Positions 4,518 through 31,600 of a stretch of DNA of 35,439 nucleotides are shown here, in pieces (the stretch's first letter is position 1; every line of letters starts with the position of its first letter). Both the position numbers and the translations under genes were made by a program. Source of the stretch: an uncultured Methanosarcinales archaeon (lineage in GTDB: Archaea > Nanobdellota > Nanobdellia > Woesearchaeales > CAZPJY01); the NCBI GenBank assembly GCA_964587045.1, contig CAZPJY010000020.1:1-35439 (forward strand), given 5' to 3'. Under the pieces are notes generated by a model. It was not told the origin of the DNA. It saw only the letters and a program-made list of their open reading frames with translations, and did not search any database.

Positions 4518-5816
4518 CTAAGGGTATAGATAGACGCGTTCTGTGGATATCACATCAGGGGTAACGAATTTGGTCAGGGTGGGCGTACCAATTTTTGGAA
4601 TAAGGTTTATTCTTAGCTCTGCATCCTCACCTATGTCTCCGGGCGATTCGTAGTAGATTTTGACAACGTCCCCGCGTCCTATGTTTCCCTCGACGAAGTT
4701 GCTTCCCATGTTGAGGTATTCAACAACGAAGTAGCCCTTGCCTAGCTCCTCGGGGGTTATGTTGATGCTTAGGCCGATTGTGCTGTTGTCTGCGGTAGTT
4801 GTCCCGGATATGTCCAGGTGTCCGTAGGTGACGCCTGAGTCCGAGATGTCCTCGTTGACTTCCACTGCGGCTCCTGAGTTGATGATTGATACGCCGAGCG
4901 GGATTGCTATGTGCGCGCCCATGTAGGCAGCTGGTGCGTTGTTGCTGATGAAGAAGACCGCGTGGGTTTGGTTTATCCCAAGAGCATCGTCATTGCCATC
5001 GTCATCGAAGTCCTCGTTGAGAGTTTCAGGCATGTTGTACAGAAACATCTGGATTCCTGGCGCCCATCCCCTGATGGCGAAGTCCTGTTCTGTTGTGCCC
5101 TGGATGTGGAAGTATCCATACTCACCGATTGCGGTGTAGTTGTTGAAGATGGCCACGGGGATTGCGCCTGCGTTGGAAACATCAGCTGTGGCTCCTGCAG
5201 GGTCCTTGAGTTCTGTGTAGATGATGCCGGCTGAGCTAAGGACCCATCTTAGGTGGGTTCCGCTGTAAACTCCGGGGCATGGCCCGTCATTGTCACATAC
5301 TTCTACAGTGTCTACTGCGCTGTCGCCGTCCAGGTCCAGTATGAGGTTCCTTGGAGCAACTTGGTAGATGTATGGGTTGTTGTTGTCGACTAGGTACTCT
5401 TGAAATACTGATAGGTTCAGGAGGGTTTGTTGGTTGTATGTGTTGAACCCGTCATTTCCCAGTTCGAGTGAGGCACCTACGCCCCTGTAGCGAAGAGTGG
5501 CTGTTGATTCGACAGTGTTTATTGTTAGAAGGGTGTTTTCGAGCTTGATCGGTTCAGAACCGGCGGCAAGCTTCATGACTTGGGTGAAGTTGTTCAGTAC
5601 TCCCATGATTCCGTTTGTTGCGGATACTTCGACTACTACTGCGTGGGTTGCAATTTGATCTTCGGACTGGTCTCCTGTGGCAAGGGCTCTTTCCTGGAGG
5701 CTGCCTGCTGTTGATATTAGAACTCCTGCAGCGACAGCTGCTACGAGAAGGAAGGCTATGAAGACTATTAGGGTGCCAACTCCCATCTCCGCTTTTCTTG
5801 CTGCCGTCACTACCAT
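4518..5816 (-). CDS. arlB: Archaellin (archaeal flagellin family), 432 aa, with a ~225-aa internal insertion of two DxDxDG-type domains
   Basis: Class III signal peptide and canonical N-terminal helix RKA/EMGVGTLIVFIAFLLVAAVAAGVLI; core KLAAGSEPIKL; archaellin-like C-terminus GDVVKI...LIPKIGTPT...TPDVISTERVYLYP. Confidence 0.9.
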   Translation of the reverse strand: MVVTAARKAEMGVGTLIVFIAFLLVAAVAAGVLISTAGSLQERALATGDQSEDQIATHAVVVEVSATNGIMGVLNNFTQVMKLAAGSEPIKLENTLLTINTVESTATLRYRGVGASLELGNDGFNTYNQQTLLNLSVFQEYLVDNNNPYIYQVAPRNLILDLDGDSAVDTVEVCDNDGPCPGVYSGTHLRWVLSSAGIIYTELKDPAGATADVSNAGAIPVAIFNNYTAIGEYGYFHIQGTTEQDFAIRGWAPGIQMFLYNMPETLNEDFDDDGNDDALGINQTHAVFFISNNAPAAYMGAHIAIPLGVSIINSGAAVEVNEDISDSGVTYGHLDISGTTTADNSTIGLSINITPEELGKGYFVVEYLNMGSNFVEGNIGRGDVVKIYYESPGDIGEDAELRINLIPKIGTPTLTKFVTPDVISTERVYLYP

Positions 5817-7298: not shown

Positions 7299-7459
7299 AT
7301 ACACTATTTTCCTAGGCATTTTCCTTTAAATAGGTTTGGAATTTTTATTCCAAAATTATAATAGAATGAGAATAGAAATATTTATATAGTAGCTTTAATA
7401 TGGACATACGTATACCAATAGTTATTTTCATAGAATTCATTTGAGTGGGAGGATACAAG

Positions 7460-9313: not shown

Positions 9314-9322
9314 TTTTTTTCC
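9314..9322 (+). terminator. Oligo-T tract, possible archaeal terminator or attenuator
   Basis: TTTTTTTCC immediately after the TAG at 9313. Confidence 0.35.
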
Positions 9323-9344
9323 ATTATTTCAATGAGGGGATTCA

Positions 9345-10058
9345 GTGGTGGAATATAAATTCAAGAAAGCTATACTCTTAATCATGCTCCTTCTCGCGAT
9401 TCCTGTAGCCTCAGCACGCGTGGTCGTCTTCCGCGACTACACCACCCAGACCACCCTGGAGAAGGGCAGCCTCCATATTGAAAGGATAATGACCCTTGAA
9501 AACATAGGATCTGCGCCAATAATACCGGGCGAACTGCATTTCAAGTTGCATGAGATAGTAAAAGATGAGCAGGTCGCATCAGAGGTCTCAAACCTGGTCG
9601 CCGAGAGCGAGCAGGGCAGGCAGCTCTCCACAGACATCATCAACGGGAACCGTGAAACCGACCTCATCATCGACGTGTGGGACACTCTGCTTCCCGGTTT
9701 CTACTACACTATCAAAATGGAATACGACGTCCAGTTCAAGAGCAAAGGCGTCCTTTTCTATCTCATAAACATCCCAACAGAAGAGACCACCATCCCAATC
9801 AGGCACAACACCCAGAAGTTCCTCTTGCCCAAAAGGTTCAGCGTCACGTTCGCACCGGGTGCAGAAGTATCAAAGAGCGACGACAAGCGTGTAGTCGAAT
9901 GGGTCAATCAAGAGGATATGCAGCTCGAGTATTCGATAGTCCCCTTCCCAAAGCTCCCGATAAAGGGCGTGAACGTTTTCTGGGCGATACTGATAGTGCT
10001 ACTGGTGGGCCTCTTCATCGGCACAAGGGTGCGACACTCAAAAAAACAGTTCGAATAG
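9345..10058 (+). CDS. Membrane-anchored protein, 237 aa (signal peptide, single beta-sandwich domain, C-terminal TM)
   Basis: GAGGGGA SD before GTG; hydrophobic N-terminus; TM VNVFWAILIVLLVGLFIG followed by basic residues. Confidence 0.8.
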   Translation: MVEYKFKKAILLIMLLLAIPVASARVVVFRDYTTQTTLEKGSLHIERIMTLENIGSAPIIPGELHFKLHEIVKDEQVASEVSNLVAESEQGRQLSTDIINGNRETDLIIDVWDTLLPGFYYTIKMEYDVQFKSKGVLFYLINIPTEETTIPIRHNTQKFLLPKRFSVTFAPGAEVSKSDDKRVVEWVNQEDMQLEYSIVPFPKLPIKGVNVFWAILIVLLVGLFIGTRVRHSKKQFE

Positions 10059-10062
10059 GCCC

Positions 10063-11859
10063 ATGAGATACATGATAGGCTTGGTTCTTTTAGTGGTTTT
10101 GTTACTGAGCACGCCGCTTGTATCGGCCAAGATTCTCCTTGAGATAGACATCGACGAGCACGGCAAGATAATCAGCCACTACGATGAGTATTACGTGACG
10201 AACGTCAACGGAACACTCACCCTGACCAACCCCTCCAACATGACCCTCTACGGCATGGAGATCCCTATGCAGCTGTTCCCCCTGACCATAATCGAGGACG
10301 GAACCTCTTACATTTCCGGCGACACCATCTACATCATTTCCCTCCAGCCCTATGAATCAATATCCTTCGATTACAGGATAATAGGGATCTCCTCAGGGCT
10401 GCCGACTGATGGTGATTGGGGCGTGCTCCACAGCGCCTTAAGGAGGCGAAACCCTGAGATTAAGGCCAGCCTGCCCATATCGCTCAGCAAAGCCCCAATA
10501 GAGGACCCAGCAGCAGGAGGGCTCAACCATTCCCGACTCGTGAGCGTCTTCCTGCAGAACCCCTCAGGCTTCGAGTTCAAGGTAAGGAGCCTAGCGATGA
10601 TTAAGACCACCGTCATGGACCCAAACGACGACTTGTGGACTGAGAACTTCATCCAGGAGGAGGATGACGCAGTCATCGAGCCTTTCGGCACTTTGAACTT
10701 TGATGTCTACGACAGGGACGCAAGCGAAGGAGACATCTACTGGCTCAAGACGGACATATTCCTTGATGAGATAGACATCACCGGGAACAACAGCGTAACC
10801 TACCTCACAATTGAAAACGTCACTTTGGTGGGCATTCCGGAGATCAACGAGACCATAGTCAACTTCTCGTCCGGCATGTACCTGGAAGAGGTCCTCTTCA
10901 TAAGGAAATACATCAACGACAGCCTGCTCAACCCAGGGGACATCGTGAAGGTCAGCCTGATCATGGACAACCTGGAAGGCCTCTCCAAGAACGTCAGCCT
11001 CATCGACACCCTTCCGAGAGGCTTTGAGCTGGTCGACCAGGGTGTCGGTGACAATTTTGAGAACCTCTCACTGTTCTGGAACAACGTGAAGATAGGCGGG
11101 AAGAGCAGGGTCCAGATTGACTACCTGCTGAAATACGTCGATGAGTCCTCTGTGGGGGTTGACTTTTTCCCGGCTGCTGAGATGAGCTACAAGGACGATG
11201 TGTTCCGCTCAGCAAGGGTGCTCTTCATACGGAAGTACGTCCCGCAGATGAGGGTATACCTGCAGAAGAAGATCTCATACTCCGAGTCTGGTGAGGTGGA
11301 GGTGCTCCTTGAGATACAAAATATCGGCGAGGCAGATTTGCTGAACATCCTGCTCAAGGAATATCTTGCGAGCGAGGATGTCTTCAGGGAGATAACCCAG
11401 GCTCCTGAAGAGAAGGGTTTATGGAGGATACCTCTCATCAAGAGGGGTGATACATGGCAGGTCTCCTACGTGACCAACGACAACGTCGCTGTGAGCAACC
11501 TGCCCGACCTGTACGGTGTGGAGAGCGAAGAGGTGCTGAAGACCATAATCTTCGAGACCGTGGTGAATTACTCCTTCCTGCCCTCAGCTGTTGAGGTCAT
11601 GGAGATTATAGGCCTTCTGATTATAGTAAGCCTTCCGATAGCCTATTACTTCCTTAAGAAACGGGATAAGAAGAAGCACACGGCACGCGTGAAGCATGTC
11701 CACCAGCATGTTGAGGAGGTCATCGATGAGCGGCCCAAGCAAGCGCCTTCAGAGAAGCATGATCCCAAGTACCATATGGCATCGAAAGAGGTTGCCCAGA
11801 AGGTCCATGAGACCCAGGATGATATAAAGCATCTCGAGAATCCTAATTCTGGTAAATGA
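10063..11859 (+). CDS. Membrane-anchored DUF11-like domain protein, 598 aa; paralogue of 7460..9313
   Basis: N-domain GTLTLTNPSNMTL...LQPYESISFDYRI aligns with GTLNITNPSNETI...LRPGNYSTFNYSI; DUF11 signature FIRKYI...PGDIVKVSLIMDN...VSLIDTLPRGFELV; TM and charged tail. Confidence 0.8.
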   Translation: MRYMIGLVLLVVLLLSTPLVSAKILLEIDIDEHGKIISHYDEYYVTNVNGTLTLTNPSNMTLYGMEIPMQLFPLTIIEDGTSYISGDTIYIISLQPYESISFDYRIIGISSGLPTDGDWGVLHSALRRRNPEIKASLPISLSKAPIEDPAAGGLNHSRLVSVFLQNPSGFEFKVRSLAMIKTTVMDPNDDLWTENFIQEEDDAVIEPFGTLNFDVYDRDASEGDIYWLKTDIFLDEIDITGNNSVTYLTIENVTLVGIPEINETIVNFSSGMYLEEVLFIRKYINDSLLNPGDIVKVSLIMDNLEGLSKNVSLIDTLPRGFELVDQGVGDNFENLSLFWNNVKIGGKSRVQIDYLLKYVDESSVGVDFFPAAEMSYKDDVFRSARVLFIRKYVPQMRVYLQKKISYSESGEVEVLLEIQNIGEADLLNILLKEYLASEDVFREITQAPEEKGLWRIPLIKRGDTWQVSYVTNDNVAVSNLPDLYGVESEEVLKTIIFETVVNYSFLPSAVEVMEIIGLLIIVSLPIAYYFLKKRDKKKHTARVKHVHQHVEEVIDERPKQAPSEKHDPKYHMASKEVAQKVHETQDDIKHLENPNSGK

Positions 11860-15421: not shown

Positions 15422-15988
15422 GTGTTGCGACTTAATAGCCCGAAGACATATGGCACCCTTTCCTATATTCTAAACCATGTCACCTTCACCCAAAGCGAGA
15501 TAGCCGCTTCACAGGGCATTTCTGTCGGCAGGGTAAACAAGGTCGTGCAATGGCTTGTGGAAAAAGGTATAGTTTCTAAGGAGGGTGGCAAGTACAAGCT
15601 AAACCAACCCAACAAGCTCATCGAACTTATATCCTTTGCGATGCCAACACCGTCAGTAAGAACCTTCGAGGTCAACCTTTCAAAAGAGGAGGCCCATAAT
15701 ACCATCAAGAGCAGGGCTATACTCTGCCGGGAAAGCGCCCTTGAGACCATCCAGAACAAGGAAATCAGCTCAGACCTCCATCTCTACCCGACTGACGAAT
15801 CCCTCATGAAGGACCTGAACATGCTCGAGCGTGGTCCTCTGAAGATACACCTGTACCCATTCGATCCCAATCTCCAGGCGGTTGAGGGCCACACCATACC
15901 GGTAAGGACCATGATAGACCTGATAGCGGACGGCAAAGGGCATCTCGCCAACGAGCTTGCAAAAAAGATATGGGGGACGCTACAATGA
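15422..15988 (+). CDS. Winged-helix transcriptional regulator, 188 aa, with a C-terminal domain reminiscent of AbiEi-type antitoxins
   Basis: FTQSEIAASQGISVGRVNKVVQWLVEKGIV..EGGKYKL is a wHTH; C-terminal PVRTMIDL...ANELAKKI. Confidence 0.75.
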   Translation: MLRLNSPKTYGTLSYILNHVTFTQSEIAASQGISVGRVNKVVQWLVEKGIVSKEGGKYKLNQPNKLIELISFAMPTPSVRTFEVNLSKEEAHNTIKSRAILCRESALETIQNKEISSDLHLYPTDESLMKDLNMLERGPLKIHLYPFDPNLQAVEGHTIPVRTMIDLIADGKGHLANELAKKIWGTLQ

Positions 15989-18900
15989 AAAGAACGACTT
16001 GGCTCTTCCTAATCGCATGCTTGCTCATCCCGATAGTCCACGCCCTCCCACAGCCCATAATCATTTACGGAAACCTGACAGGACCCTGCGTCATCGGTGC
16101 AAACATCTCATGCACCTCCTATTGGGGAGGTTTCATGGGAGACACCAGCCGAATCTACCAGGAGGACTTCTATATTACAGACGGGTCCTACTTCAATCCT
16201 TTCGGTAAAGCTGTCATGTACGTCTGCTCATTGAACTACCTCGACGACCTCTGGCCAGGGGGCACGCCGTGGGGTGCCGATATCGAGATCAATGTCTCGA
16301 ATCCTGCCTGTGGTGCCAGCTTCTTTGGCGAAGTCCTCCAGTATAACCAGACCTCAAGCTTCGAGAAGTACGTCAACGTCAACGCCACATCCACATTCAC
16401 AACAGACATCCCGGTCAATAGCTCCTTTACCAACGACAACACCACCTTCCTGGACTGGACTGTTGATTCGACCGATGCCCTGAACTACACGCTGTTCATA
16501 GATGATGAGATTTCAGTTTCCTCACCGTTCGTCCAGCAGATTGCAAATATTGGTGCTTCGAGTTATACTCTGAACAGCAGCCAGGCGCTACCCGACGATG
16601 ATTATTACTGGAGGGTCCTCGCCTACGATTCGAGGGGCTATTGGGCCCAGGTCTCGGGGCTGGGGATCTTCACTGTCACCACGATACCGCCAAATATCAC
16701 CAGCGTAAGCCCGGCTAACAGGACTTGGAGGAACAACCCAAACGTCGCCTTGCAGGTCACCACGGATAAACCAGCGGAATGCAGGTATGCCAACAATTCA
16801 GGAGTGCCGTTCGCAAACAAGGCAGTGATGGCTGGAGGGGGGACCCAGATCCACACGGCAAATGTCGTTTTGCCAAACCAGGGACCGCACAACGATTACT
16901 TCTTCCAATGCAACGATTCGGCAGGCAACCTCAATCCAAGCGAGGTCCTGCTCTCCCTTTACCTCGACTCGATGGCTCCGGATCCGAGCAACGCGAGCGT
17001 GTTAATAGCGGGAGGCGCATACTATGCAACATCCACGACTCTGACATTCACATGGAGCGGGTTCACCGACCCGGGATATCCTGAGAACTCAACCAACATC
17101 ACCAGTTACATCTACAGCTTCAACAACAATGGAGGCACGGCTATAGGCACATTCGACCCATCATCTCCGGGATCGCTCAGCAGCGCACCGCAGGGCAATG
17201 TAAGCGTCTACGTATGGGCCAGGGACTCCATAGCCAATTACGGACTCGCCGTGTCCGATTGGATCTACGTCGACTCTATCGCACCGCAGTTCGAAAACAT
17301 ATCTACCTCCCCAATGAGCCTGTGGTTCAACTACACAGGCAACTACACCGTCACGCTAACGATAAACGATAACCTCAACGGGAGCCCTGCCTTCAGGTAC
17401 TGGATTGGGAATGACACCTCGACGATCTGGGCCAACATGACCTCCTTGGGAGGGAACAATTACAGGATCTCGGTACCAAACCAGGCGGCCCCAAACGACT
17501 GGTTCAACCGCAGGAACGAATACCTCAACATCGAAATGAACGCTACCGACGTTGCGGGCGTGATCAACACGACAGTGCTACAGGCACTGATCAACATAGA
17601 CAACACGGCACCGGTTATGGGCATCGTAGGTAACAAGGTGGCCTACGAAGACCAGCTCCTGAGGTTCAACGTGACCGCATCAGATGCCGAGAACAACACA
17701 TTGACATTCACTTCGAACCAGACTGGCATATCAGTAGTGAAGTACACCAACAACCTAGCGGGATACAGCTGGACACCAACAGCAAGTCAAGTTGGGCTGC
17801 ACGCGGTGAACATCTCAGTAAGCGACGGTGTGCTGCATGATGAGGAGATAATACTGATAACAGTAATCGAAACCAACGACGCTCCGATCCTTGAAGAGAT
17901 GGGGACCCTCACAGCCTATTTGAGCCAGTACTTCGAATACCAGATAAACGCTTCAGACCCAGAAAATGACCCAATGTTCTACACAAGCAACTCGACCCTG
18001 TTCAATGTAGACTACTACACTGGGCTGATAGGCTACTACCCTCAGCTCGCAGATGCAGGAAGCTATCACTTCAACTTCACGGTCGAGGACGACCAAGGGC
18101 TCGCCGATTCAGAGATGGTCACCTTCAACGTAAGGTACTGCGGAGACGGAATCTGCACATCCTACTACGAAAACGTTTCAGCCTGCCCGATGGACTGCGA
18201 AAGCAGTGCGGTACAAGAGCAGCTCGCGGTCCTGATCTACCCTAGGAACTGCATCAACAGCAGTTTCCAGATAAAGTCTGTGAAGCTGGTCGAGCGGGCC
18301 ACCTGCGACGTCAAGGGCAGGATAATAAATGGTATGGAAGTCTGCGGCAACATGAGCGATGCGACCATCAAGGTTTACAACTACACCAAGGACAAGTACT
18401 TACTTTATGACGAGATGATAACCGACTCCTACGGCGACGCTTCCTTCTACCCTGAGAGGTTAGGATGGTACAAGATTGAGGTCGCAAAGGGAGGCTATAC
18501 GACTGTCTTAGGTTACGCACACGTCAACGACTGCATAATGCTCGGCAGGAACGAACCCACAATCCCCATCAGCACCACTGAGCCGGAAGAGACTAAGGAG
18601 CCAAGCAAGCCGTCCGTGATAGAAAAGCCTGAAGCAGAACCGGGAGAGACAATGTGGCAGCTTGTCGGGGACGTACTGATAATGGTGGCAGCTCTGGTTC
18701 TGCTCCCGATAATAATAGTCTTAGGAGCGCTGGTTGGCGCGTATTACATCATCGCCAAGTACTTCCCGAAAATAAGGCAGAAGGTCGACGAGTACATAGA
18801 AAAAGCGCTCTTTGCAATCAAGCTGAAATACCTCAGCGCAGTACTTGGGTTCTATGACCCGAAGCTGAAGCGGTTCGGCGTGGTTTACAGGAACTGGATG

Positions 18901-19269
18901 TTTTACAGGGTTGGATTCAAGGGGAAATGCATACTGCTTTCGAAAGACGAACCCCTAGGCAAGATTGCTGACACGTCGATTATCATGGTAAACCCGTGGA
19001 AATACAAGATTGTCAACTATGCAATCAAGGAGCCGAAGGCAGAACCTGACAATATACTGATGCGAGTGGAGTACGGACGCAGGGGGCTCATCTTCTCATA
19101 TGAGGACATGATCCCTGTGAAAATCATCATATCAGAAGAGGATGAGCTCGAGAAAAGGGTAAAGGAAGCCGTCCTTAACAGGGGCTGGATTAAGGCCGCG
19201 ACCGGTTTCGTTTCAACCAGGTCCAAGGCCATCTTTCTCCAAATGAAGTCCTATCTCACTCGGAAGTGA
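15985..19269 (+). CDS. Large type I membrane protein, ~1094 aa: Ig/FN3-like domains, two cadherin-like repeats, CGDGxC...CPxDC motif, TM helix, ~170-aa cytoplasmic domain
   Basis: ATGA overlap with the regulator; signal peptide MKRTTWLFLIACLLIPIVHA; NTAPV...EDQLLRFNVTASDAENNTLTF and NDAPIL...INASDPEND; YCGDGICTSYYENVSACPMDC; long hydrophobic segment at ~18660-18750. Confidence 0.85.
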   Translation: MKRTTWLFLIACLLIPIVHALPQPIIIYGNLTGPCVIGANISCTSYWGGFMGDTSRIYQEDFYITDGSYFNPFGKAVMYVCSLNYLDDLWPGGTPWGADIEINVSNPACGASFFGEVLQYNQTSSFEKYVNVNATSTFTTDIPVNSSFTNDNTTFLDWTVDSTDALNYTLFIDDEISVSSPFVQQIANIGASSYTLNSSQALPDDDYYWRVLAYDSRGYWAQVSGLGIFTVTTIPPNITSVSPANRTWRNNPNVALQVTTDKPAECRYANNSGVPFANKAVMAGGGTQIHTANVVLPNQGPHNDYFFQCNDSAGNLNPSEVLLSLYLDSMAPDPSNASVLIAGGAYYATSTTLTFTWSGFTDPGYPENSTNITSYIYSFNNNGGTAIGTFDPSSPGSLSSAPQGNVSVYVWARDSIANYGLAVSDWIYVDSIAPQFENISTSPMSLWFNYTGNYTVTLTINDNLNGSPAFRYWIGNDTSTIWANMTSLGGNNYRISVPNQAAPNDWFNRRNEYLNIEMNATDVAGVINTTVLQALINIDNTAPVMGIVGNKVAYEDQLLRFNVTASDAENNTLTFTSNQTGISVVKYTNNLAGYSWTPTASQVGLHAVNISVSDGVLHDEEIILITVIETNDAPILEEMGTLTAYLSQYFEYQINASDPENDPMFYTSNSTLFNVDYYTGLIGYYPQLADAGSYHFNFTVEDDQGLADSEMVTFNVRYCGDGICTSYYENVSACPMDCESSAVQEQLAVLIYPRNCINSSFQIKSVKLVERATCDVKGRIINGMEVCGNMSDATIKVYNYTKDKYLLYDEMITDSYGDASFYPERLGWYKIEVAKGGYTTVLGYAHVNDCIMLGRNEPTIPISTTEPEETKEPSKPSVIEKPEAEPGETMWQLVGDVLIMVAALVLLPIIIVLGALVGAYYIIAKYFPKIRQKVDEYIEKALFAIKLKYLSAVLGFYDPKLKRFGVVYRNWMFYRVGFKGKCILLSKDEPLGKIADTSIIMVNPWKYKIVNYAIKEPKAEPDNILMRVEYGRRGLIFSYEDMIPVKIIISEEDELEKRVKEAVLNRGWIKAATGFVSTRSKAIFLQMKSYLTRK

Positions 19270-21509
19270 TGCTGATGCACTCGACCAGGGGAGAGGGAGG
19301 TGTAGGTGTGCTTTTGATTTTCATAGTCACACTCATAGGAGTGGCAGCCGCTATCGGAGTCCTGTATTCCAGCTCAGAAGACGCCCAGCAGGACATGCTA
19401 ACTGACGCAAAAGGGATGAGGAACTCCCTCGTGGCAGGACTGAACATCCTCCAGGTAATGGGCAGCAACGGCGCTCTAGGAGAGCTGCAGAACGTGTCGT
19501 TCATCCTGGGTCTCGGGCCCAACTCCGGAACCATAGACCTAAAAGATGTGACAGTGCTGCTCAACACCGAGCACGGAAGCACCACCTTGGCCTACCGGGG
19601 CGCTGATGGCATAGTTGACCTCGGAAGCGATGGCTTCGACACCCTAAACGCCATGGACCTGTCCGAACAGAGGGTCAACCAGATAGAATACGGGACTGTG
19701 GACAGCAAGTTCCTGTCCCTACCCATAAGCATTAATCCTGACGGTACTTTCGATCCTGCTCCGACTTTTGGGAATGTTTACGTCTACAACAGCCTCTCCA
19801 ACCAACAGAAGCCCCGCCTGGTCTCTGACTCGACGGACAGGCTGCTCGCGGTATGGGAGGACTATTCAGGAAACCCGGACATCTTCGCATCATTCTCAGC
19901 CGATTACGGCAACAACTGGAGCGCTCCAGTGGCTGTTGACAACACGGCCTTCGCCCAGTACACCCCTGACATCGCAGTATCGGACGACGATGTCTTCTAT
20001 GTCGTGTGGATGGAGAGCAACGCTGTAAGAATATCCAACAGCACCGACGGCGGCGTGTCATGGAGCATCCCGGCCCAGGTCAACACCGCTGGGACCGGGA
20101 CAGATCCTGCGATAGCGATTAGGTCGGATGGCAGGATATTCGTTGTGTGGGATGCGGGCAACGAGGTCTACATGTCCTACTCAGACAACGGCGGCGGGAC
20201 ATGGCAGCCCCGCATACTGATAGACGATGGGGGCCAGCTGCAGAACTACCCAGACATCGACGTCGACTCTGAAGGGGATGTGGTCGCGGTCTGGGAGGAG
20301 AGGATAAGCCCCGCCAACTACGACGCGATGGTCTCCAACTCGAGCGACGGAGGCAACACATGGAGCCCGAGCGTGACCATACACGACGCATCCCTCACGC
20401 ATCAGTTCAACCCCGAGATATCGATAGCCGGCACCAGGATCCAGGCGGCATGGGTGGACTACCGCGGCGGCAATCAGGACATTTACTCAGCCTATTCGGA
20501 TGACGACGGGAGGACGTGGTCCAACAACCAGACTGTGCACACGGTGACTGTGGGAAACCAAAGGGACATGAGCATCAGCACAAGGGGTGACATGACAGCC
20601 ATCCTGTTCGAGGGCGGTGTCGGGACATACAACATCTTCATGGCCATCTCATATGACGGCGGGGATACCTGGCTCAAGGACTTGAAGGTGGACACGACTT
20701 CAGGGGTACTTTGCAACAACCCCTGGGTCTATATCGGGGAAGACGGCAACGTGAACATGATCTGGTATGACAACAGGTATGCCAGGAATGATGTGTGGTT
20801 CGACAAGTTCGGCGGCGATTTCTTCCTGATAAACAGCACCCATGCAAATTTCTACAGCAAGGACGGCCAGATGTACGCTGTGGACCTAGAGGCTGACCTT
20901 AGCTCTGTGCCCAAAAGTGTCTCAATCGAAAAGCCCATCGGACCTTATGGCTACCTGACAGTTGAGGGAACGACCAATACAGCGAACACCATAGAGCCTC
21001 AGATGACATTCAACGTAAGGGATGCTGGAACACCCATCGAGGACATAGACCTGGACGGCCAGGGCGACCTGCTGTACCTCAACACGACCCACCTGACATT
21101 CGTCATCAGCTCAGATGCATCGCCGACTGAGGTAGCACTTGGGACCAAGACGACATTCCCGCCATCGGACATTTCAGTATCCCAAAACATCGGTTCCTAC
21201 GCGAGCCTCGAAATCAGCGGCACCACAACAGGATTCTACTCCCTTGAGGGCACCACCGCGATTCTGACCCCGAAAGCAATGGGCAGTGGCTTCTTCGTGG
21301 CAGAGCCTTACGGTGTCGGTGACGACTACATGCCAGGGCACCTCAACAAGGGCGACATAGTGAAAGTCCATCTCGAGGCGGCCGAACCGCTCGCCAAGGG
21401 CGAGAAAGGCACAATCAAGGTAATCCCAAAGTCCGGGATGCCTGCGGTAGTTAGTTTCACAGTTCCGACACTTTTATATGAGGAGGACACAGTCCTGTAC
21501 ATGAGCTGA
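19269..21509 (+). CDS. Divergent archaellin-family protein, ~746 aa, with an inserted Asp-box (BNR) beta-propeller at ~19760-20810
   Basis: TRG/EGGVGVLLIFIVTLIGVAAAIGVL class III-like N-terminus; core aligns with 4518..5816 (TLAYRG...LGSDGFDTLN vs TLRYRG...LGNDGFNTYN; GxGxF...GDxVKx...IPKxGxP); six SxDxGxxW-type boxes. Confidence 0.85.
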   Translation: MLMHSTRGEGGVGVLLIFIVTLIGVAAAIGVLYSSSEDAQQDMLTDAKGMRNSLVAGLNILQVMGSNGALGELQNVSFILGLGPNSGTIDLKDVTVLLNTEHGSTTLAYRGADGIVDLGSDGFDTLNAMDLSEQRVNQIEYGTVDSKFLSLPISINPDGTFDPAPTFGNVYVYNSLSNQQKPRLVSDSTDRLLAVWEDYSGNPDIFASFSADYGNNWSAPVAVDNTAFAQYTPDIAVSDDDVFYVVWMESNAVRISNSTDGGVSWSIPAQVNTAGTGTDPAIAIRSDGRIFVVWDAGNEVYMSYSDNGGGTWQPRILIDDGGQLQNYPDIDVDSEGDVVAVWEERISPANYDAMVSNSSDGGNTWSPSVTIHDASLTHQFNPEISIAGTRIQAAWVDYRGGNQDIYSAYSDDDGRTWSNNQTVHTVTVGNQRDMSISTRGDMTAILFEGGVGTYNIFMAISYDGGDTWLKDLKVDTTSGVLCNNPWVYIGEDGNVNMIWYDNRYARNDVWFDKFGGDFFLINSTHANFYSKDGQMYAVDLEADLSSVPKSVSIEKPIGPYGYLTVEGTTNTANTIEPQMTFNVRDAGTPIEDIDLDGQGDLLYLNTTHLTFVISSDASPTEVALGTKTTFPPSDISVSQNIGSYASLEISGTTTGFYSLEGTTAILTPKAMGSGFFVAEPYGVGDDYMPGHLNKGDIVKVHLEAAEPLAKGEKGTIKVIPKSGMPAVVSFTVPTLLYEEDTVLYMS

Positions 21510-21514
21510 TACAG

Positions 21515-23170
21515 ATGAAACCTGCCTTGATACTCATGCTTCTCCTCATCATCCCAGCAGCATCAGCTTTCGACCAGGTGGTGGTCAACTCCCAGGACTG
21601 GAGGGATGTCTACGCCGGGATTACATACGGCGAGAGGAACAACATACCAGTTAATTTCATGACCGACCTGAAGAGCCAGCTCACCTTCACCCAGACCCTT
21701 GACCGGATCAGGACAGACCTGCTGCTCATACAGTCCCCGAGCGAGGTCTATGCTGTGGCATACGGCCAGGTGCTGGCAGACCTCGGCTTCCAGGTCACAG
21801 TCCTCGAGGAAGATAACAATCCTATGGAGATCATGAGGCTGCTTTCCCAGGAGAAGGGAATCAGCTCCTTCATCATATTGGACGACTCCTACGGCTACAA
21901 CAGCATATCGGTGGCTCCCTACGCGGCAGTGGCCAACAAGGGTGTGCTCTTCGCAAACAGGAACAACATCGATGATGTGAGGGGCCTGCTCGACGAGTAC
22001 GGAAATGATGTGCTCATTTATGGAGAGGTTGACCGGGAGGTCAAGGACGCCCTGTCCGGCTACGACCCAGAGGTCCTGAACTTGGGAAGCAGATTCGACA
22101 ACAATATCGAGATGGTCAGGAGATACCTTAAGGTAAAACCTACCAGCCAGGTTTTCCTGACCAATGGGGAATTCATCGAGAGGGAGCTGCTTTCAGGCTC
22201 CTATCCAATCCTCTTCATAGGCAAGGATAACGTGCCTGACCAGGTGATAGAATTCATAAATGAGGGATATTTCTCCGTCGGCGTTCTCGTCGGAAACGAT
22301 CTGCTCCAGACCTCGCTTTTCATCAAGGATCAGACCGGGCTCCACACCTTCGTCAAGTTCGCGAGGTCAGCCAGGATACCCAGTTCCCCTATCGAGAAGA
22401 TCGAGGGTCTCGACCTGCAGTACATGCCCAGGATCATGCTCTCAATCGATGTTGCATCATTGAGGTACAATTACCTGACCAAACAGCTCGAGATGGTCGT
22501 GCAGAACAAGGCTGATCTCGTGACGTATTTCCGCTCCACCATTCTCGTGAGGTCGGACGGCGAGTCCATTGCTACACTGGGGGACCCTGTGCCTGTCTTC
22601 GTCGACAAGAACGAGTTCAAGACCATCACCTACCCGCTAGAAACCCTAGGTCAGAACCTGACGGCAGAAATCCTGTTCTCGTACGGTGAGGGAAGCAAGT
22701 CGCTTGAGCAAGCCGCGCAGACCAGTCTGCCAGTTGAAAGGATTGAGATCCAGGATGACTCCGATGTGGGGATCACCGGTGCTGTGTATGCCAAGAACAA
22801 GGGCGTACTCTATGTGGTGGTCGAAAACAGAGGAGGTGTGGACGCTTACGTCGATGCAGAAGTTATTGGGCTCATCGTGGATGGCGACCCCACCACTGTG
22901 AGTGTTAGGGGTACTTATTTGGTACAGGCTCATGACTCCGCAAGGTTGCCTATTAGTGTCACCCTGACCGAGGCTGACCTTATTGACAATCCGACTGTTT
23001 CAGCACAGATCTATTTCGGCGAACGGGAGAACGTTCTGGTCAAGAGGTCATCTGCGGAGGTCAATCTCGAGATCAGCCAAGTCGATTATATTACCATCGG
23101 CCTGGTCACCCTTTCAGTTCTGGTAGTCCTGCTGATATTGCTAATTCTGATTAAACGCAGGAAGAAGTGA
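21515..23170 (+). CDS. Membrane-anchored protein, 551 aa, with CWB2 (cell-wall-binding repeat 2)-like alpha/beta repeats and two Ig-like domains
   Basis: VVVNSQDWRDVYAG, ILDDSYGYNSISVAPYAA...VLFA, LGSRFDNN, VFLTNGEF...YPILFIG..VP resemble CWB2 units; C-terminal TM plus KRRKK. Confidence 0.7.
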   Translation: MKPALILMLLLIIPAASAFDQVVVNSQDWRDVYAGITYGERNNIPVNFMTDLKSQLTFTQTLDRIRTDLLLIQSPSEVYAVAYGQVLADLGFQVTVLEEDNNPMEIMRLLSQEKGISSFIILDDSYGYNSISVAPYAAVANKGVLFANRNNIDDVRGLLDEYGNDVLIYGEVDREVKDALSGYDPEVLNLGSRFDNNIEMVRRYLKVKPTSQVFLTNGEFIERELLSGSYPILFIGKDNVPDQVIEFINEGYFSVGVLVGNDLLQTSLFIKDQTGLHTFVKFARSARIPSSPIEKIEGLDLQYMPRIMLSIDVASLRYNYLTKQLEMVVQNKADLVTYFRSTILVRSDGESIATLGDPVPVFVDKNEFKTITYPLETLGQNLTAEILFSYGEGSKSLEQAAQTSLPVERIEIQDDSDVGITGAVYAKNKGVLYVVVENRGGVDAYVDAEVIGLIVDGDPTTVSVRGTYLVQAHDSARLPISVTLTEADLIDNPTVSAQIYFGERENVLVKRSSAEVNLEISQVDYITIGLVTLSVLVVLLILLILIKRRKK

Positions 23171-23299: not shown

Positions 23300-24310
23300 A
23301 TGGCAGGCCGCGCACTGACAATACTAAAGCAGGACACTATTTCTCAAGATGCGCAACTCAGCAGAGTAGTCGAATTTCTGGGCAATAAGGTTGATGACCT
23401 CAGCAAAGATAGAAAAACCTCATTCTGGAGAACCATCAAAGACATCAAGGCCCAGTACACATCTGTTCCTGTAAGTATCTTCTCTCAAGAGCAGACGGTC
23501 CTAGAAGCCACAATCGCTTACCTCAAAGACCAAAGGAAACAAACCACCACAAGCATCGCAAGAAGCCTCAAACGCGACCCCCGAGAAATCCACGCAACCT
23601 ACACCCGAGCAAAAACAAAAACACCAACCCACACGACAAAAGACACAACCCGAATACCACTGCAAATACTCGAGAAACGTATCCTCTCCCCTCTCGAAGC
23701 AGTTGTCTGGCACCTAAAAAACACACAACATCTCACCCACGCCCAAATCAGCCACATTCTCGGGAAAGACCAACGCACAATATGGACCGCCTGGAACAGG
23801 GCGAGGATCAAGGATTCTCAAGAGCCGGAAATATCCGCCTGTCTTGAGGATCCGTCCATCACTGAGATTGTACGGCAAATAGAGGAAGTCTCCGCAGATA
23901 TAGGGTCATGTTTCAATGAGTTAATGGATCAAATCATCATTCATCGAAAATCGGTACCTGCGAGCATCTTCTCTCAAGAGCAGACGGTCCTAGAAGCCAC
24001 AATCGCTTACCTCAAAGACCAAAGGAAACAAACCACCACAAGCATCGCAAGAAGCCTCAAACGCGACCCCCGAGAAATCCACGCAACCTACACCCGAGCA
24101 AAAACAAAAACACCAACCCACACGACAAAAGACACAACCCGAATACCACTGCAAATACTCGAGAAACGTATCCTCTCCCCTCTCGAAGCAGTTGTCTGGC
24201 ACCTAAAAAACACACAACATCTCACCCACGCCCAAATCAGCCACATTCTCGGGAAAGACCAACGCACAATATGGACCGCCTGGAACAGGGCGAGAGGCAA
24301 AGCAACATGA
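23300..24310 (+). CDS. DNA-binding protein, 336 aa, with four sigma70-region-4-like HTH modules (two identical pairs)
   Basis: IPxxIxxxRILSPLEAVVWHLKN...LTHAQISHILGKDQRTIWTAWNRA motif, a family I recognise as common in DPANN genomes. Confidence 0.8.
   Translation: MAGRALTILKQDTISQDAQLSRVVEFLGNKVDDLSKDRKTSFWRTIKDIKAQYTSVPVSIFSQEQTVLEATIAYLKDQRKQTTTSIARSLKRDPREIHATYTRAKTKTPTHTTKDTTRIPLQILEKRILSPLEAVVWHLKNTQHLTHAQISHILGKDQRTIWTAWNRARIKDSQEPEISACLEDPSITEIVRQIEEVSADIGSCFNELMDQIIIHRKSVPASIFSQEQTVLEATIAYLKDQRKQTTTSIARSLKRDPREIHATYTRAKTKTPTHTTKDTTRIPLQILEKRILSPLEAVVWHLKNTQHLTHAQISHILGKDQRTIWTAWNRARGKAT
23477..24294 (+). repeat. 329-bp direct repeat, identical by eye: 23477-23805 and 23966-24294 (offset 489 bp = 163 codons)
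   Basis: Base-by-base comparison showed no mismatch; the flanks diverge. Confidence 0.9.
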
Positions 24311-25075: not shown

Positions 25076-25603
25076 ATGGTTGACAACCTAGGGATGACTT
25101 TGGATAGGGATGTACTCAGACAGGCAAACATTGAGGCAAAGGATGAGATAGCAGAGCTAAGGCGCCTTGTCGCATTCTTATCATCGAAATTTGAACTCGA
25201 AGCGGATGAGATCCTATCTCTCGCAGATGATAGTCTCCCCCTCATGGTTTTCGCACAGGGGTTACCACCATTAGAGGCTTTGGTCCGGTATATGAAGGAT
25301 GAGAGGGGGAACACCATATCAGAAGTCGCCGCAATTCTCAATAGAAGCCCAAAGACTATCTGGCACAGCTACAGGCAATCCTTGACACAGCCGTTCCATC
25401 AATCTCGTTCGGCTGGTCCGAACATCCCATTGCGTATCTTCCATGACCGGCGGTTCTCAATCCTTGAGGCGGTCTGCCACTACCTAAAGGAAAAAAAGGG
25501 ATGGTCCAATATAAGAATCTCAAGAGAATTAAACCGGGACACGAGGACAGTATGGACTGTGCTGTCGCGTCACAGGAAAAAGTATATAGGTGGTACATCA
25601 TGA
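25076..25603 (+). CDS. DNA-binding protein, 175 aa, with two sigma70-region-4-like HTH modules; paralogue of 23300..24310
   Basis: LPPLEALVRYMKD...ISEVAAILNRSPKTIW and IPLRIF..RRFSILEAVCHYLKE...ISRELNRDTRTVWT. Confidence 0.8.
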   Translation: MVDNLGMTLDRDVLRQANIEAKDEIAELRRLVAFLSSKFELEADEILSLADDSLPLMVFAQGLPPLEALVRYMKDERGNTISEVAAILNRSPKTIWHSYRQSLTQPFHQSRSAGPNIPLRIFHDRRFSILEAVCHYLKEKKGWSNIRISRELNRDTRTVWTVLSRHRKKYIGGTS

Positions 25604-28600
25604 GAAGAACCGTGCTTCTGGCCCTCAGCATCATGATTCTTATAGTACCGCTCATCGCAAACGGATTGATGCTCTCCAGCGATAAGGAATCATTCATAGC
25701 TGGAGAGCCTGTGATAATAGGCCTAAATGGATCTTACAACCTCAGCGCGCCAGTGGATGTCATAGTCGTAGATCAAAGTGGGGTTGTCTCGCTAGTGGGG
25801 TACTGTTTGCCACCCTGCAAAATTATATTTAACCCACAATTCCAATCTGTAGGCGATTATGAAATAAGCGCCATCACAGACAACGAGACCATAGCATCAT
25901 TGAACATCTCCTTTACTGACGGCCGTCCCGCAGAGGAGATAGGGGCCCTGATTAGGAAAAAGACCCTGCGAGAGGGCGAGTCCGAGGACTTCGAGATTCA
26001 ACCCGCCCGCGCAAGGGGGTCATTTTGGGTAGAGGATGCAAACGGCACAATACTCGAGAACTTAACAAAGCATGAAATAACAGGAAGGGCGCCTGGCAAA
26101 TACATCCTGAAAGGGCTCCTTAACGATAAGGAGAGGTCATCGTATGTTTCAGTAGCGTTCACGGTGGTTCAGGACCTGAATAGGATCCTCGATAAGACGA
26201 CCATCCTGTTGAGGGATGAAGAAGGTCACGACATCCCTGCCAGGGTCAGGGTGCTGAACAGGACTGAGAGGGGCGCATATGAAGTCGAATTCACACCGGA
26301 ACACGCCACTATCAACAGGGTCATCATGAAAATTCCTGACACATCCCAAGTGGCAAGATTCAGAATAGGGGAGGGTGAGGTGTCTGGTAAGTTCACCCAA
26401 TCCTACTCCATAGACCCAGAGGAGGTCAACTTGACTTCTGCTATCATATCCGTAGTGGCAAAAGGGACCAGCCTTTACAAGTGCAAGGATTGGGATTTCG
26501 ACTCTCAGGAATGCTTTGGAGCGTGGGAATTCCATAAGAAAATCGTTCCCGGTAGTGAGTATAACATCACAATCGGCCCGGATGATCCTGGGTTTGGAGA
26601 ACTCGGCAACAACTGGTCGGTTCAGAGCGGTACTTCATCGATAACCAACGGCAACAGCTTTGCGACAGCCCCAATATCAGATATCAACATTACCCGCTCA
26701 TTCATCCTCTTCAGACAAAGGATGGGAAACGGCGACAGATACCCTGACATCAGCGCTGTATATGCGACTTTCGACGACACAGACCAAATAAGGTTCACCA
26801 GGGAGGGCAGTTCAAGCTTGGTGAACATCGACTGGTATGTGGTCGAGGGAAGCGACATCCGAGTCGTGAACGGGACAACAGACTACAACGATTCAGATGT
26901 GCAGAAGGACGAGGTGATCCCAGTCGTCAACCTGAGCAACAGCTTCGTAATCGCATCTGCCAGCTGTGATGACTCGGTCGATGACCAATGGCACGAGACG
27001 TTTTGGACAGGCGAGCTTCTTAACCAGTCCGCGCTAAGGCTTCAACGCAACACCTCAGGCGCATGTGATGGTACCATTGGATGGTTCGTGGTTGAGATGA
27101 GGGATGGTTCCTCAGTCCAGACTGGAACAGCCACCCTCGGTTCGTCATCAGTCGAGACAACCGCAAGCATCCAAGATGTCAACATGTCAAGCTCTTTTCT
27201 CTATTTCACCCGCAGGACCGATGACAGCGCGACGGGACTCGCCCACACGTCAGTTTTTGGCGAGATGACAAACTCAACAACACTCACATTTAGGAGGCAG
27301 ACAGCCGCAGGGCAGACCGACATACATTGGTTCGTTGTGGAAACTGTGTGGGCTAACGTCCAACGGGGCTACTATTACACCCCAACAACTGGAACCATCA
27401 CCCGAAACGAGCCGATAGGAGATGTCAACCTCACACGCAGTTTCTCACTCCTGTCAAATGACTGTACAGGTGCGGGAGAATCGTATGCAAGACCGCACTG
27501 GACGAGCATGCTCACGAGCGAGACTAACCTTTACTTGAGTCGGGATTACACTGGGCAGAGCCAGAACCTCAGCTGGGAGGTCGTCGAGTTCGGAGAGCCG
27601 GCCATCACTGTGTTTTGGGCCAATGAGGAAAACAATCTCGGCGTAGGGAGCCTTGATGGAGGTAACCTAACAGGCAACGAGACAGTATATTCCCATGGCA
27701 CAAACAGAAATGTGAGTGTGGAATGCGTTGCCGGAAACTGCTCCTATATCCTCGATGAATGGGTGGACGGGACCGACCTGGCTGGAGGTGAGAGCGCCAC
27801 TGTCGGTTTCATATGCCTGAACGCCAGCCCTGGAGTATTCAGCGCCACTTTCAACCTCACGAGCAACCTCGACCAGTCCGCTGACCAGTACGTAGTAAAT
27901 TGTGAGATTCTCCCGCCCGTTACGGTCTTTTGGAACCAGACCAATCTGGATATCGGCGGCGGGAACGCAAGCGGCGGCTCAATCACCTCCTCTCTCGAAA
28001 TTCAATCTTTGGGTGTAAACTCGAACATAATGGTGGCCTGCACCTATGGGAACTGCTCCATTTTTTCATCTAACTGGACCAACAGCACCAGTTTAAACGA
28101 TGCCGAATCGGTGCTTACAACATTCACATGCGATGATACAATACCCGGTTCTTTTTCAGCCTTGTTTGGTGTTTGGTCAAATGAAGACACGCTGCCAAAC
28201 GAGGTGGTTTTGACCTGCGAGATGATTGACATCACACCCCCATCCCAAGTGAACGGGCTTGATAACACCTCTGTTGGATACACATGGATTACTTGGAGCT
28301 GGACCGCCCCGTCGGAGAGCGATTTCAATCATGTAGAGATTTGGATCAACGGGTCTTTTTGGGTGAACACTTCCTCAGAGAGCGTGAACATCACCGGGCT
28401 GTTGCCCTTAACGACCTATGAGATAGGAACAAGAACTGTGGATAGCAGCGGTAACGTCAACATCTCCTGGGTAAACAACACGGCAGCCACTTTGGAAAAC
28501 TTGGCACCTGCCGCGACCCTCATCGCGCCAGCCAACGGGAGCGTAAGCTCCCTCCCTTGGAGGCTGATTGAGGCGGAAGTTACTGACCCAGAGGATGGAA

Positions 28601-31600
28601 CAATCTGCGTGTGGGTATTTGGAGGGATATCGGCACCCCCCTCGGCAGAAAATCTCGTTTATAGCAATTGCAGCTTCGGTAACGCGAGTACGGTTTCGTA
28701 CAACTGGACCTCACCTGTGCTTTTGCCGACTGCGCAGACCGAAGTGCTCTGGCATTTCGACAAACTGCGCGAATATGGCGAGAATGACACATTCATCTTG
28801 GATTTCGCATACAACAGCCATGACCGCACCTGCACAACTACATGTCCGTCATTTATTGAGAACGGGGGAAAATTCGCAGGCGGGTATCACTACAATGGAT
28901 TGAACCAGTACTGGGAGCTGAACGAGCAGTACTTCAACGATCCTTTCACCCAGCGCGTCTTCCAGGCATGGATCAAACCAGAAGACACAAATGGTATCCA
29001 GACCATCTACGAGGAAGGTGGGGCCACAAATGGCTTCGCACTCCGCCTCAACGGGGCCACGCTCGAGTTCGGAACGCAGACCTCCGATGCAATTTATATA
29101 ATCTCGACACCATACATCGACACGTCTGGCTGGCACTTCGTGACCGCCCAATACGACAGCGGCAACATGACCCTCTATGTCGACGGAACCCTCGTCAACT
29201 CGACTGACACGTCAGCAGACTTCACAACAATTGCAAGCCACGGCAATGATGGCGGACTGGGTGCAACCCAAGGTTCGGACGCTTTCGACAACACAGCAGC
29301 TCAATGGTATGACGGAAGAATAGATGAGGTCCGCATCCTCAACACGCCACTTTCCCAGTTGGAAGTGATGCAAGGATACCAACTATCCATCAACACAACC
29401 TATTACTGGAGGGTAGGTATGTCCGATTCTTTCAACAGCGCATTTGGGCCGATATGGTCGTTTAACCTAGCTAATGAGACAGTCATCTGGAACTCATCCT
29501 CACTTAATTTGGGATACGGGCTACCAGAGGATGGAAACTTAACTGGCAACATCACTCTGCGCAGCTTTGGGGAAAATGAAAACATCAATGTCACATGCGT
29601 CAGCGGTAACTGCTCGGTAATCGTCGATGATTGGATCGACGGGTCCAACTTGGGTCATGATGCTGAACAATCCGTGAATTTTACGTGCATAAACATCTCA
29701 ACAGGCATCTTCTATGCTGCATTTGAACTTATCTCAGACCAGGACAGCTTGCCATCTGAGGTGAATGTTACCTGCGAGATGCTCCCCCCTGTTTTCATCG
29801 TTTGGAATCAAACAGAGCTCAATATGTTTGGCTGGTACAGTGAGGGCAACGCAACCGGCCTAGTCGATATCCATTCTAGCGGATTTAATGCAAACGTTTC
29901 GAACTGGTGTTCGGAGGGTGATTGCTCCTCAGTATCGAACGACTGGGTGAACGGAATTGACATGCCGGACGGAACCTCATATTCAGTTAATTTTTCCTGC
30001 TCCGATGCTGTACCAGGATCATTCAACTCCACTTACCTACTGACTTCATATAACGACAGCGTTCCGCACGAGCTCTCATTGGTATGCATCATGACAGACA
30101 GGCCGCCGAGCTCGGTGTTAAACCTCAGTGATCAGGATGCTGGATTGAGCTGGATAGAGTGGTCCTGGACCAACCCCACTGATATGGACTTCAACCACTC
30201 GGAGGTGTGGCTGAACGGATCCTTTGTGCTCAATACTTCAAACGAAGTCCTAAACATGACAGGCTTGGCACCTTCGACTGCCTATGTGATACAGATTATG
30301 ACCGTCGATGATGGAGGCAACATAAACACCAGTTGGGTAAACGACACGGCAGAAACTCTCCATAACGACCTACCAGAAGTGACGCACTTATCTCCCCCTC
30401 ACCAAAGTGTCGGTCCCAACGATTATAGGGATCTGGCTATAGAGGCTTATGACACGGAGGCACAATTGTTTTGCTTGCGTATTTATGGCGATACCGCAGG
30501 CTCAATCGTAGAGGAGGCCCTCCTTTACAGTAATTGCAGCTTCGAAAACGCAAGTGTGATATCGTACAACTGGACCTCACCTGTGCTTTCGCCAACTGCG
30601 CAGACCGAAGTGCTCTGGCATTTCGACAAACGGAGCGAATACGGAGAGAATACCACTTATGTGAATGATTTCACAGGGAATGGATTCAACCGCTCATGCG
30701 CCGGCTCATCCTGTCCAGTATTCATAGAGAACGGTGGAAAATTCGCAGGAGGATATCACTACAACGGACTGAACCAGTACTGGCAGCTGACAGAGCAGTA
30801 CTTCAATGACGCATTCTCAACACGCGTTTTCCAAGCATGGGTCAAACCAGAAGACACGAATGGCATCCAGACCATCTACGAGGAAGGTGGAGCAACAAAT
30901 GGCTTTGCCCTCCGCCTCAACGGAGCCACGCTCGAGTTCGGAACGCAGACCAACCAATTTATCTACATCACATCGACACCATACGAAGACACAGCAGGCT
31001 GGCACTTCGTGACCGCCCAGTACGACAGCGGCAACATGACCCTCTATATCGACGGAATTCTCTTAAACTCAACCGACACATCAGCAGACTACACAACAAT
31101 CTCGGGGCATGGCAATGAAGGCGGCTTGGGTGCCACGGAGAGTCAAGACGCGTTCGATGCTTCCGCCGGAAACTATTTCGCAGGAAAGATTGATGAGGTA
31201 CGCTTCCTCAACACACCCATCACCTCAGCTGAAGTGATGCAGGACTACCACCTTGCTGACAACTCTACTTACGGGTGGAGCGGTCGGGCATTCGACGGTT
31301 TTGGATGGACTAATGTGTCTGAGTGGGAATTCACCGTCGCTCTTGTTGATGTTGAGGTAAACGACGGCAATTTGAGCCTGTCTGTTCCATTTCCACATGA
31401 TGAGGAGAATGTCACATTGTTTGTTGAGGTTTTCAACAATTTCGCGAGCAACATCAGCAATCTATCTGTCATTTTTTGGGATGAGTCTCTTTCGCTGACA
31501 ATTGGAAACATCACCATCCCATACCTACCCGGAGGAACCAGTAAAACCGTTAACATTTCCTTTATCACCCACTTTGGTACTATGAATATTACAGCAATCG

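Follow-up and report, generated by a model that had tools for sequence, protein, structure and literature searches.

A modular archaellin with a predicted seven-bladed Asp-box beta-propeller in its outer region, encoded by an uncultured archaeon of the Woesearchaeales

Why would a subunit of the archaellum carry a beta-propeller, and does such a protein still belong to the filament? The question is raised by a gene at 19269..21509 on the + strand of a 35,439-nucleotide stretch of DNA (the window; contig CAZPJY010000020.1 of assembly GCA_964587045.1), which is contig C20 of a 1.6-Mb genome with a completeness rating of 100%. The gene is an uninterrupted open reading frame (ORF) encoding 746 amino acids (aa) (P0001), and the analysis started from a sequence-only reading in which two archaellin core halves enclose two accessory domains, the first of them split by an Asp-box propeller. 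We give about even weight to the following answer: the protein is an intact archaellin, one of whose outer loops carries what is predicted to be a seven-bladed propeller, and it is likely a minor subunit that displays a probably noncatalytic binding domain.

Archaellin core, accessory modules and nested propeller

The Pfam scan that the sequence-only reading had called for matched both components above their cut-offs: Arch_flagellin (PF01917) at 54.4 bits (cut-off, 29.5) in two stretches, one at each end of the protein, and BNR_2 in its middle at 54.6 bits (cut-off, 31.4). At the N terminus lies a predicted class III leader (aa 1 to 8, 19269..19292; all features of this gene are on the + strand), recognized by sequence only, with R7 at −2 and G8 at −1, followed by G11 at +3 in the mature part and a hydrophobic stretch at aa 12 to 32. 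A charged residue at −2 and glycines at −1 and +3 are the leader positions described in PMC10117864. The N-terminal archaellin helix (aa 9 to 54, 19293..19430; aa 11 to 54 in the full-length model) is divergent, with 33% identity to the consensus. It leads into the N-terminal half of the archaellin beta-sandwich core, placed by the model at aa 55 to about 135 (19431..19673), whereas the C-terminal half, placed by Pfam and the model, occupies aa 669 to 746 (21273..21506).

Since mixed alignments of archaellins and propellers were misaligned, the full-length model was built from archaellin homologues alone, with no propeller rows in the alignment. Its block-mean predicted local distance difference test (pLDDT) values were 64 to 98 at aa 11 to 140 and 87 to 97 at aa 591 to 746, and the two ends of the predicted structure pack into one core. 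The modeled range 55 to 746 matched Methanocaldococcus jannaschii FlaB1 (5YA6) at Z 17.4 with a root mean square deviation (rmsd) of 2.2 over 141 residues, ahead of ArlF/G at Z 13.1 and 10.7, and the ten best Foldseek rows were all archaellins. Furthermore, 20 alignment columns are invariant across the propeller archaellin and 61 relatives. Modeling of the ends had been proposed as the test that could refute their identification as archaellin core halves; they came together as a single archaellin core.

The insert covers aa 161 to 515 (approximately 19749..20813; 355 aa). It contains six Asp-boxes, at aa 210, 258, 305, 358, 410, and 461 (nucleotides 19896 to 20672), spaced by about 50 aa and matching the consensus taken from PMC2716378; among 10,000 shuffled sequences, none contained two or more Asp-boxes and 70 contained one. 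Seven blade starts were located at P182, P233, P280, P328, P382, D433, where the proline is missing, and P485. AlphaFold2 modeling of aa 161 to 515 with 55 homologues yielded a closed propeller of seven blades (pLDDT, 93.9; predicted template modeling score, 0.93). Thus, the six Asp-boxes, the seven blade starts, and the nested seven-bladed propeller of the sequence-only reading were all recovered. Judged from the secondary-structure pattern, blade 7 seems to be closed by a short strand from the N terminus, so that the two ends of the propeller would lie together; this would suit insertion into a loop, and we propose it as the reason why the insert is tolerated.

The best structural match of the propeller was CylK (7RON; Z 38.4, rmsd 2.5, 335 residues), which is itself seven-bladed (PMC8916777). 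Other propellers followed at a Z of about 29, including PL25 and GH145-type seven-bladed enzymes, and template modeling (TM) scores were about 0.7 to 0.74 for GH145-like and Photorhabdus lectin propellers versus about 0.58 for sialidases. The sequence family is very large (12,274 HMMER matches) and is related to TIGR04275 and NF053835; the examples inspected are secreted or anchored surface proteins, and a search of the Atlas returned clusters that are unnamed or named BNR only.

The propeller sits inside an accessory module. Among relatives, the number of small DxDxDG-led beta modules between the two halves of the core ranges from none to two, and protein length rises accordingly, from about 200 aa without a module to 305 aa with one and 430 aa with two. 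In the propeller archaellin, module A begins at aa 151 to 160 (19719..19748), assigned by profile and residue register, and runs to a degenerate DxDxDG-type loop; the rest of it, of the module 2 type, follows the insert at aa 516 to 585 (20814..21023; profile; pLDDT 52 to 82), and module B is intact at aa 586 to 668 (21024..21272; profile; pLDDT mostly above 90). A profile of four two-module archaellins aligned with aa 6 to 161, up to the acidic loop, and resumed at aa 492/516. The N-side alignment of a 30-sequence archaellin profile ended at aa 139, and the preinsert piece alone did not score against the module 1 or the module 2 profile. For these reasons the left boundary of the split was placed by residue register: aa 151 to 159 joined to aa 516 to 525 fall in register with the intact module at aa 589 to 608, leaving no more than one residue without a counterpart. 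The proposed split of the first module at its DxDxDG-type loop stands, with its left half placed in this way.

Both modules had been described as homologous to those of a paralog in the window, the 432-aa two-module archaellin at 4518..5816 on the − strand (P0002), which was identified by Pfam and has a canonical N-helix and no insert. That likeness holds for module 2 of the paralog and not for its module 1. Residues 516 to 588 scored 43 bits against module 2 of the two-module paralog family versus 12 bits against module 1, are 35% identical to the protein's own module B, and lack the Cys pair present in module 1 of all 31 two-module archaellins compared. The module 2-type score and the missing Cys pair make an independent duplication of a single module likelier than descent from the 4518..5816 paralog. 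A single accessory module would then have been duplicated, and a propeller from the common pool of surface proteins would have been inserted into one copy. The earlier statement that archaellins usually have about 200 to 250 aa is understated, since modular forms of 300 to 460 aa are common among the relatives and large ones have been published (PMC13357602).

The family of one- and two-module archaellins is widespread (window 4518-5816, L011, L012, L024, L045-L058, and L126-L139), several two-module members have relaxed N-helices, and Pfam reported no family for the accessory modules of the 4518-5816 paralog. Among the closest relatives of the archaellins, the source labels are mostly Candidatus Woesearchaeota or Nanoarchaeia, which suggests a Woesearchaeota-like DPANN archaeon, although many records are titled uncultured Methanosarcinales.

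Place in the filament and role of the propeller

The genome appears equipped to build archaella. An arl cluster on contig C10 encodes ArlF/G, ArlH, ArlI, and ArlJ together with three archaellins; ArlH and ArlI scored above cut-off, and ArlJ and ArlF/G gave strong matches below it. An A24 peptidase and an STT3/AglB match are also present, a PF06847 domain was not found in the genome, and seven archaellin-length paralogues were counted, the propeller archaellin included. The frame, domains, fold, and machinery are supported by sequence or prediction, and we infer processing, incorporation, minor status, and binding as follows. Once the 8-aa leader had been cut off by the A24 peptidase, the ArlHIJ motor would from time to time place a copy between the major one-module archaellins or at the filament end. 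The two small beta modules would serve as a stalk, and the propeller would use its variable top face to bind a ligand, either a glycan or a protein, that is present on a surface, on another cell, or on a host.

Three side observations concern these genes. A 458-aa gene of the cluster with no NCBIfam match (L125:1456-2832, G000:C10) occupies a position at which one might look for ArlCDE or ArlX-like components, the ORFs of at least 100 aa there included a single ArlF/G-like gene, and an archaellin elsewhere (G029:C15:3462-4298) is broken by one TGA stop.

Minor status is suggested by two sequence features, the relaxed N-helix and the position of the gene outside the arl cluster, among surface-protein genes. 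Helix identity to the consensus is 0.33, compared with a median of 0.90, and is 0.5 or lower in 11 of 66 modular archaellins. The 10 other relaxed relatives all belong to the two-module size class, which suggests a class of minor subunits rather than simple decay. A tree left the protein unplaced on a long branch with support of 44 to 71, after 8 of 74 rows with more than 35% gaps had been dropped; in one related comparison, the query row consisted of the C part only.

What the propeller does was approached through conservation across 55 homologues of the domain. Conserved positions coincide with the Pro, Trp, Ser, Asp, and Gly residues that recur from blade to blade. None of the Arg, Lys, His, or Glu residues of the insert is kept in half of the homologues, none of its three His residues is conserved, and the best-kept Tyr residues (in 56% of the homologues) recur at one blade position. 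Conservation thus follows the blade repeat and not an active site, which favors binding without catalysis. Asp-boxes are structural, and most propellers bind their ligands at the variable top face (PMC2716378). A glycan is a plausible ligand, guessed from fold neighbors of the model, and attachment to a host is plausible as well.

Several points weigh against the view of a minor, binding archaellin. The helix has lost many near-invariant residues, so the protein may not polymerize, and TIGR02537, which matches four paralogs, does not match the propeller archaellin. In the full-length model, pLDDT was below 50 over the propeller and 44 to 48 at aa 141 to 160, so the model does not show how the junctions are shaped or how module A refolds. 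The homologues used in the conservation test are 22 to 33% identical and may not share the function of the propeller archaellin; moreover, selection is not measurable on a singleton form. A beta-propeller is about 45 Å across. The lattice area per subunit, calculated for radii of 80 to 120 Å with the 5.54-Å rise from PMC13357602, is 2785 to 4177 square Å, which accommodates a propeller, so bulk forces neither minor status nor a tip position. Of the minor archaellin proposed in the sequence-only reading, the relaxed helix and the location outside the arl cluster thus remain as arguments and bulk alone does not; likewise, a steric argument for a tip location was tried and found unsupported, since the area suffices. 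Scattered archaellum genes are usual in Nanobdellati (PMC13705601), which weakens the argument from gene position, and most solved Asp-box propellers are glycosidases (PMC2716378).

The same divergent helix and missed TIGR02537 match could mean that the protein has left the filament, with its pilin-like helix serving as the membrane anchor of a cell-surface adhesin or binding protein, in the manner of stator subunits or sugar-binding proteins with class III signals. This explanation, which we consider unlikely, gains from the coupling of the gene to genes of membrane-anchored surface proteins and not to arl genes, and from the wide occurrence of substrate-binding proteins with class III signals in archaea (PMC13705601). 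However, the whole archaellin core has been kept, including the C-terminal strands, and archaellins outrank ArlF/G in the structural comparison. The invariant columns shared with the 61 relatives argue in the same direction, and relaxation in ten other two-module archaellins makes the divergent helix look like a feature of a class.

Because the lattice area also permits full occupancy, the propeller could form a structural sheath or shield that alters stiffness or hides virus receptors, in a conditionally expressed alternative archaellin. The outer domains of Haloarcula ArlA2 and ArlB do form sheaths and have been proposed to be environmental adaptations (PMC13357602). A major subunit would, however, be expected to keep its helix contacts, which the propeller archaellin has not, and the propeller family is typical of surface proteins; we regard a sheath as quite improbable.

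About equally little weight goes to a third explanation, in which the propeller cleaves glycans as a hydrolase or a lyase and makes the archaellum enzymatic, comparable to flagella with flagellinolysin. The prevalence of glycosidases among solved Asp-box propellers (PMC2716378), sequence matches to sialidases, and the PL25 and GH145-type neighbors in the structural comparison are in its favor, as are ten bacterial flagellins with sialidase-annotated inserts (PMC5595980) and the presence of a peptidase-type archaellin in the same genome. Against it, the sialidase matches track the Asp-box repeats, the BT3686 family NF052497 scored 15 bits against a cut-off of 700, and CylK needs Arg105 from a domain that is absent in the propeller archaellin (PMC8916777). 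GH33 sialidases are six-bladed (PMC2716378), and the propeller here has seven blades. No residue of catalytic type is conserved among the homologues, and no Arg stands two residues before any blade-start Pro. GH33 sialidases carry an RIP motif, an Arg triad, and catalytic Asp, Glu, and Tyr residues. Neither the RIP motif nor the Arg triad was found in the insert, a search made at the sequence level, and no Arg or Glu is conserved; the seven blades, the TM score of about 0.58, and the lack of an RIP-type Arg do not support identity as a GH33 sialidase. The sequence-only reading had left room for a glycan-cleaving propeller, and that half of it was not supported.

Integrity of the locus and rarity of the architecture

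The reading as an intact archaellin requires that the insert not be an artifact, and the sequence-only reading had named reads with a chimeric join near 19750 or 20810 as a refutation. Near-identical DNA is present in a salt-marsh metagenome run, X1, which is shallow, was available in contig form alone, and is perhaps not independent of the source; no RNA data set was listed among those containing it. One X1 contig covers 19686 to 20192 with zero mismatches and bridges the left junction. The right junction is unbridged, since the X1 pieces stop at 20797 and restart at 20821, and it falls within the uncovered gap 20798-20820. No chimeric joints or loose ends were seen in the X1 contigs, that gap lying outside their coverage, and no second propeller copy that could cause a misjoin was found in the genome. 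The GC content at synonymous third codon positions (GC3s) of the insert is 0.74, ordinary for the genome, and the difference of 0.09 between insert and flanks is reached by 7 of 81 long genes; a recent foreign origin, considered on grounds of codon use, is therefore unsupported. The open frame, the restored module register, the single propeller copy, and the host-like codon use together argue against a misjoin. An assembly chimera or a neutral, decaying fusion, to which the singleton architecture, the long branch, the unbridged right junction, and the loss of Pro and Trp from blade 6 might point, is very improbable in view of the mismatch-free contig over the left junction, a frame that stays open and a register that is restored over both junctions, the lack of another propeller copy to misjoin, the ordinary GC3s, and six intact Asp-boxes.

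A second archaellin-propeller protein was not found in any search. A word search of 5.8 billion proteins, in which 8000 candidates were scored, returned 33 matches, all of them propeller-only except the query. In HMMER searches of 1.84 billion representatives, the best 150 of 12,274 matches contained no propeller match with an archaellin domain except the query, and three plain two-module archaellins besides it. When 401 genomes of the order were searched with the insert, 12 matched, and an archaellin was present at none of the 13 other propeller loci; these include the unpublished L037 (G182), which is counted in this negative only. The archaellin profile matched 64 of the 401 genomes (up to four candidates per genome scored), with no frame longer than 619 aa among the matches listed. 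A pattern scan of metagenomes gave one weak propeller locus and no second archaellin-propeller, and none of 1401 candidates among proteins of 757 to 2160 aa with the paralog's N terminus carries the architecture, which is weak evidence. No description of an archaellin with a beta-propeller was found in the open-access literature, where titles and the starts of abstracts combine archaellin and propeller in the swimming sense only.

Other inserts were seen in related filament subunits. Three archaellins of about 510 aa, one in this genome (L006:1486-3021, G000:C33) and two in others (L096:5974-7509 and L099:5968-7524), carry in the variable region a metallopeptidase-like insert with weak Reprolysin/M64 matches below the Pfam cut-offs; in this genome, it sits at the same variable region as the propeller. 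Another protein, P0020 (735 aa), has a bacterial prepilin-type N terminus (N_methyl, PilV-like) and the same propeller repeat family in its middle; judged by its sequence, it is the pilin counterpart of the archaellin-propeller architecture.

The surroundings of the gene are rich in surface proteins. Its ATG overlaps the stop codon of an upstream gene for a 1099-aa Ig/PKD-domain surface protein (15970..19269, + strand; ORF and Pfam), and the two are probably cotranscribed. Five nucleotides downstream begins the ORF of a predicted 551-aa surface protein (21515..23170, + strand), which has no Pfam match and is present in 54 of 151 genomes searched within the order. Its homologues often lie near homologues of the helix-turn-helix (HTH) gene and the 248-aa gene, and it is not tied to archaellins. 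A conserved gene neighborhood around the propeller archaellin was not found among the relatives.

Elsewhere in the window, an HTH-type ORF (23300-24310) is made up of two internal repeats, each about 110 aa long and nearly identical to the other, which may reflect either a genuine duplication or a repeat introduced by assembly. A 2490-aa surface protein (25501-32973) has duplicated LamG, FN3, and CARDB domains, and its C terminus is similar to two small secreted proteins, of 233 and 248 aa, that are also encoded in the window. Finally, genes of 430, 622, 237, and 598 aa for which Pfam gave no clear family (6027-11859) recur beside two-module archaellins in relatives (L050-L054, L127, L128, L131, and L139) and possibly represent a conserved surface module.

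Relation to known systems and meaning

The protein shares with archaellins of PF01917 (M. jannaschii FlaB1, 5YA6; Halobacterium salinarum, 9EQ7; M. villosus, 7OFQ) the class III-type leader, the long N-helix, and the two-ended beta-sandwich core. It differs from them in its 746 aa, two accessory modules, nested propeller, relaxed helix, and gene position outside the arl cluster. Extra outward domains in the central variable region are also found in ArlA2 and ArlB of Haloarcula marismortui (PMC13357602) and in ArlB3 of Natrialba magadii (PMC10117864). The Haloarcula proteins, however, are major subunits of about 450 aa whose outer domain, by the account in PMC13357602, has no convincing structural homologue, whereas the insert here is a recognizable propeller nested inside another accessory module; the word propeller was not found in the text of the supplements to that paper. 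In bacterial flagellinolysin and the sialidase-annotated flagellins (PMC5595980), a secondary subunit of the filament likewise displays a borrowed domain within its hypervariable region. Their filament protein is nonhomologous, and activity has been shown for the peptidase form (PMC5595980), in contrast to a propeller known here from sequence and a model. The minor pilins PilB and PilC of Streptococcus sanguinis belong to the same type IV filament superfamily and bear grafted adhesin or lectin modules; these are vWA and lectin modules proposed to lie at the tip (PMC10628169), whereas here an Asp-box propeller is looped into an archaellin. The seven-bladed propellers CylK (7RON), BT3686 (5MUL), PL25, the Photorhabdus lectins, and the TIGR04275/NF053835 repeats have the same fold, blade number, and repeat pattern, but the insert is about 14% identical to the solved structures, falls below the family cut-offs, and shows no evident sign of their catalytic sets at the sequence level.

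Taken together, precedents exist in large archaellins that bear outer domains, in flagellins whose inserts are annotated as sialidases, and in pilins of modular build. The architecture described here, which is well supported by sequence and model and which we regard as real, adds the propeller form as new among functionalized type IV filament subunits. Its weight is limited by a single gene and a predicted function. Archaella are mostly regarded as organelles for swimming, and for archaellin outer domains no clear function has so far emerged (PMC13357602). A binding-type fold and a peptidase-bearing archaellin in one genome suggest functionalized archaella that parallel flagellinolysins and modular pilins, and the accessory-module loop seems tolerant of a large insert.

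Archaellin expression is strong in Woesearchaeota, and archaellins have been proposed to take part in contact with a host (PMC11606122). A further-reaching and rather doubtful idea is that the archaellin serves Woesearchaeota-like DPANN archaea as a display platform for plugged-in domains, on which the propeller subunit is a host-recognition adhesin of the archaellum. If so, the adhesin and the peptidase-bearing paralog would make a filament for finding, holding, and processing a partner surface. The 355-aa propeller is a compact, expressible probe for the ligand or host of DPANN archaea, and under the display idea whatever it binds would give a lead to the host of this lineage.

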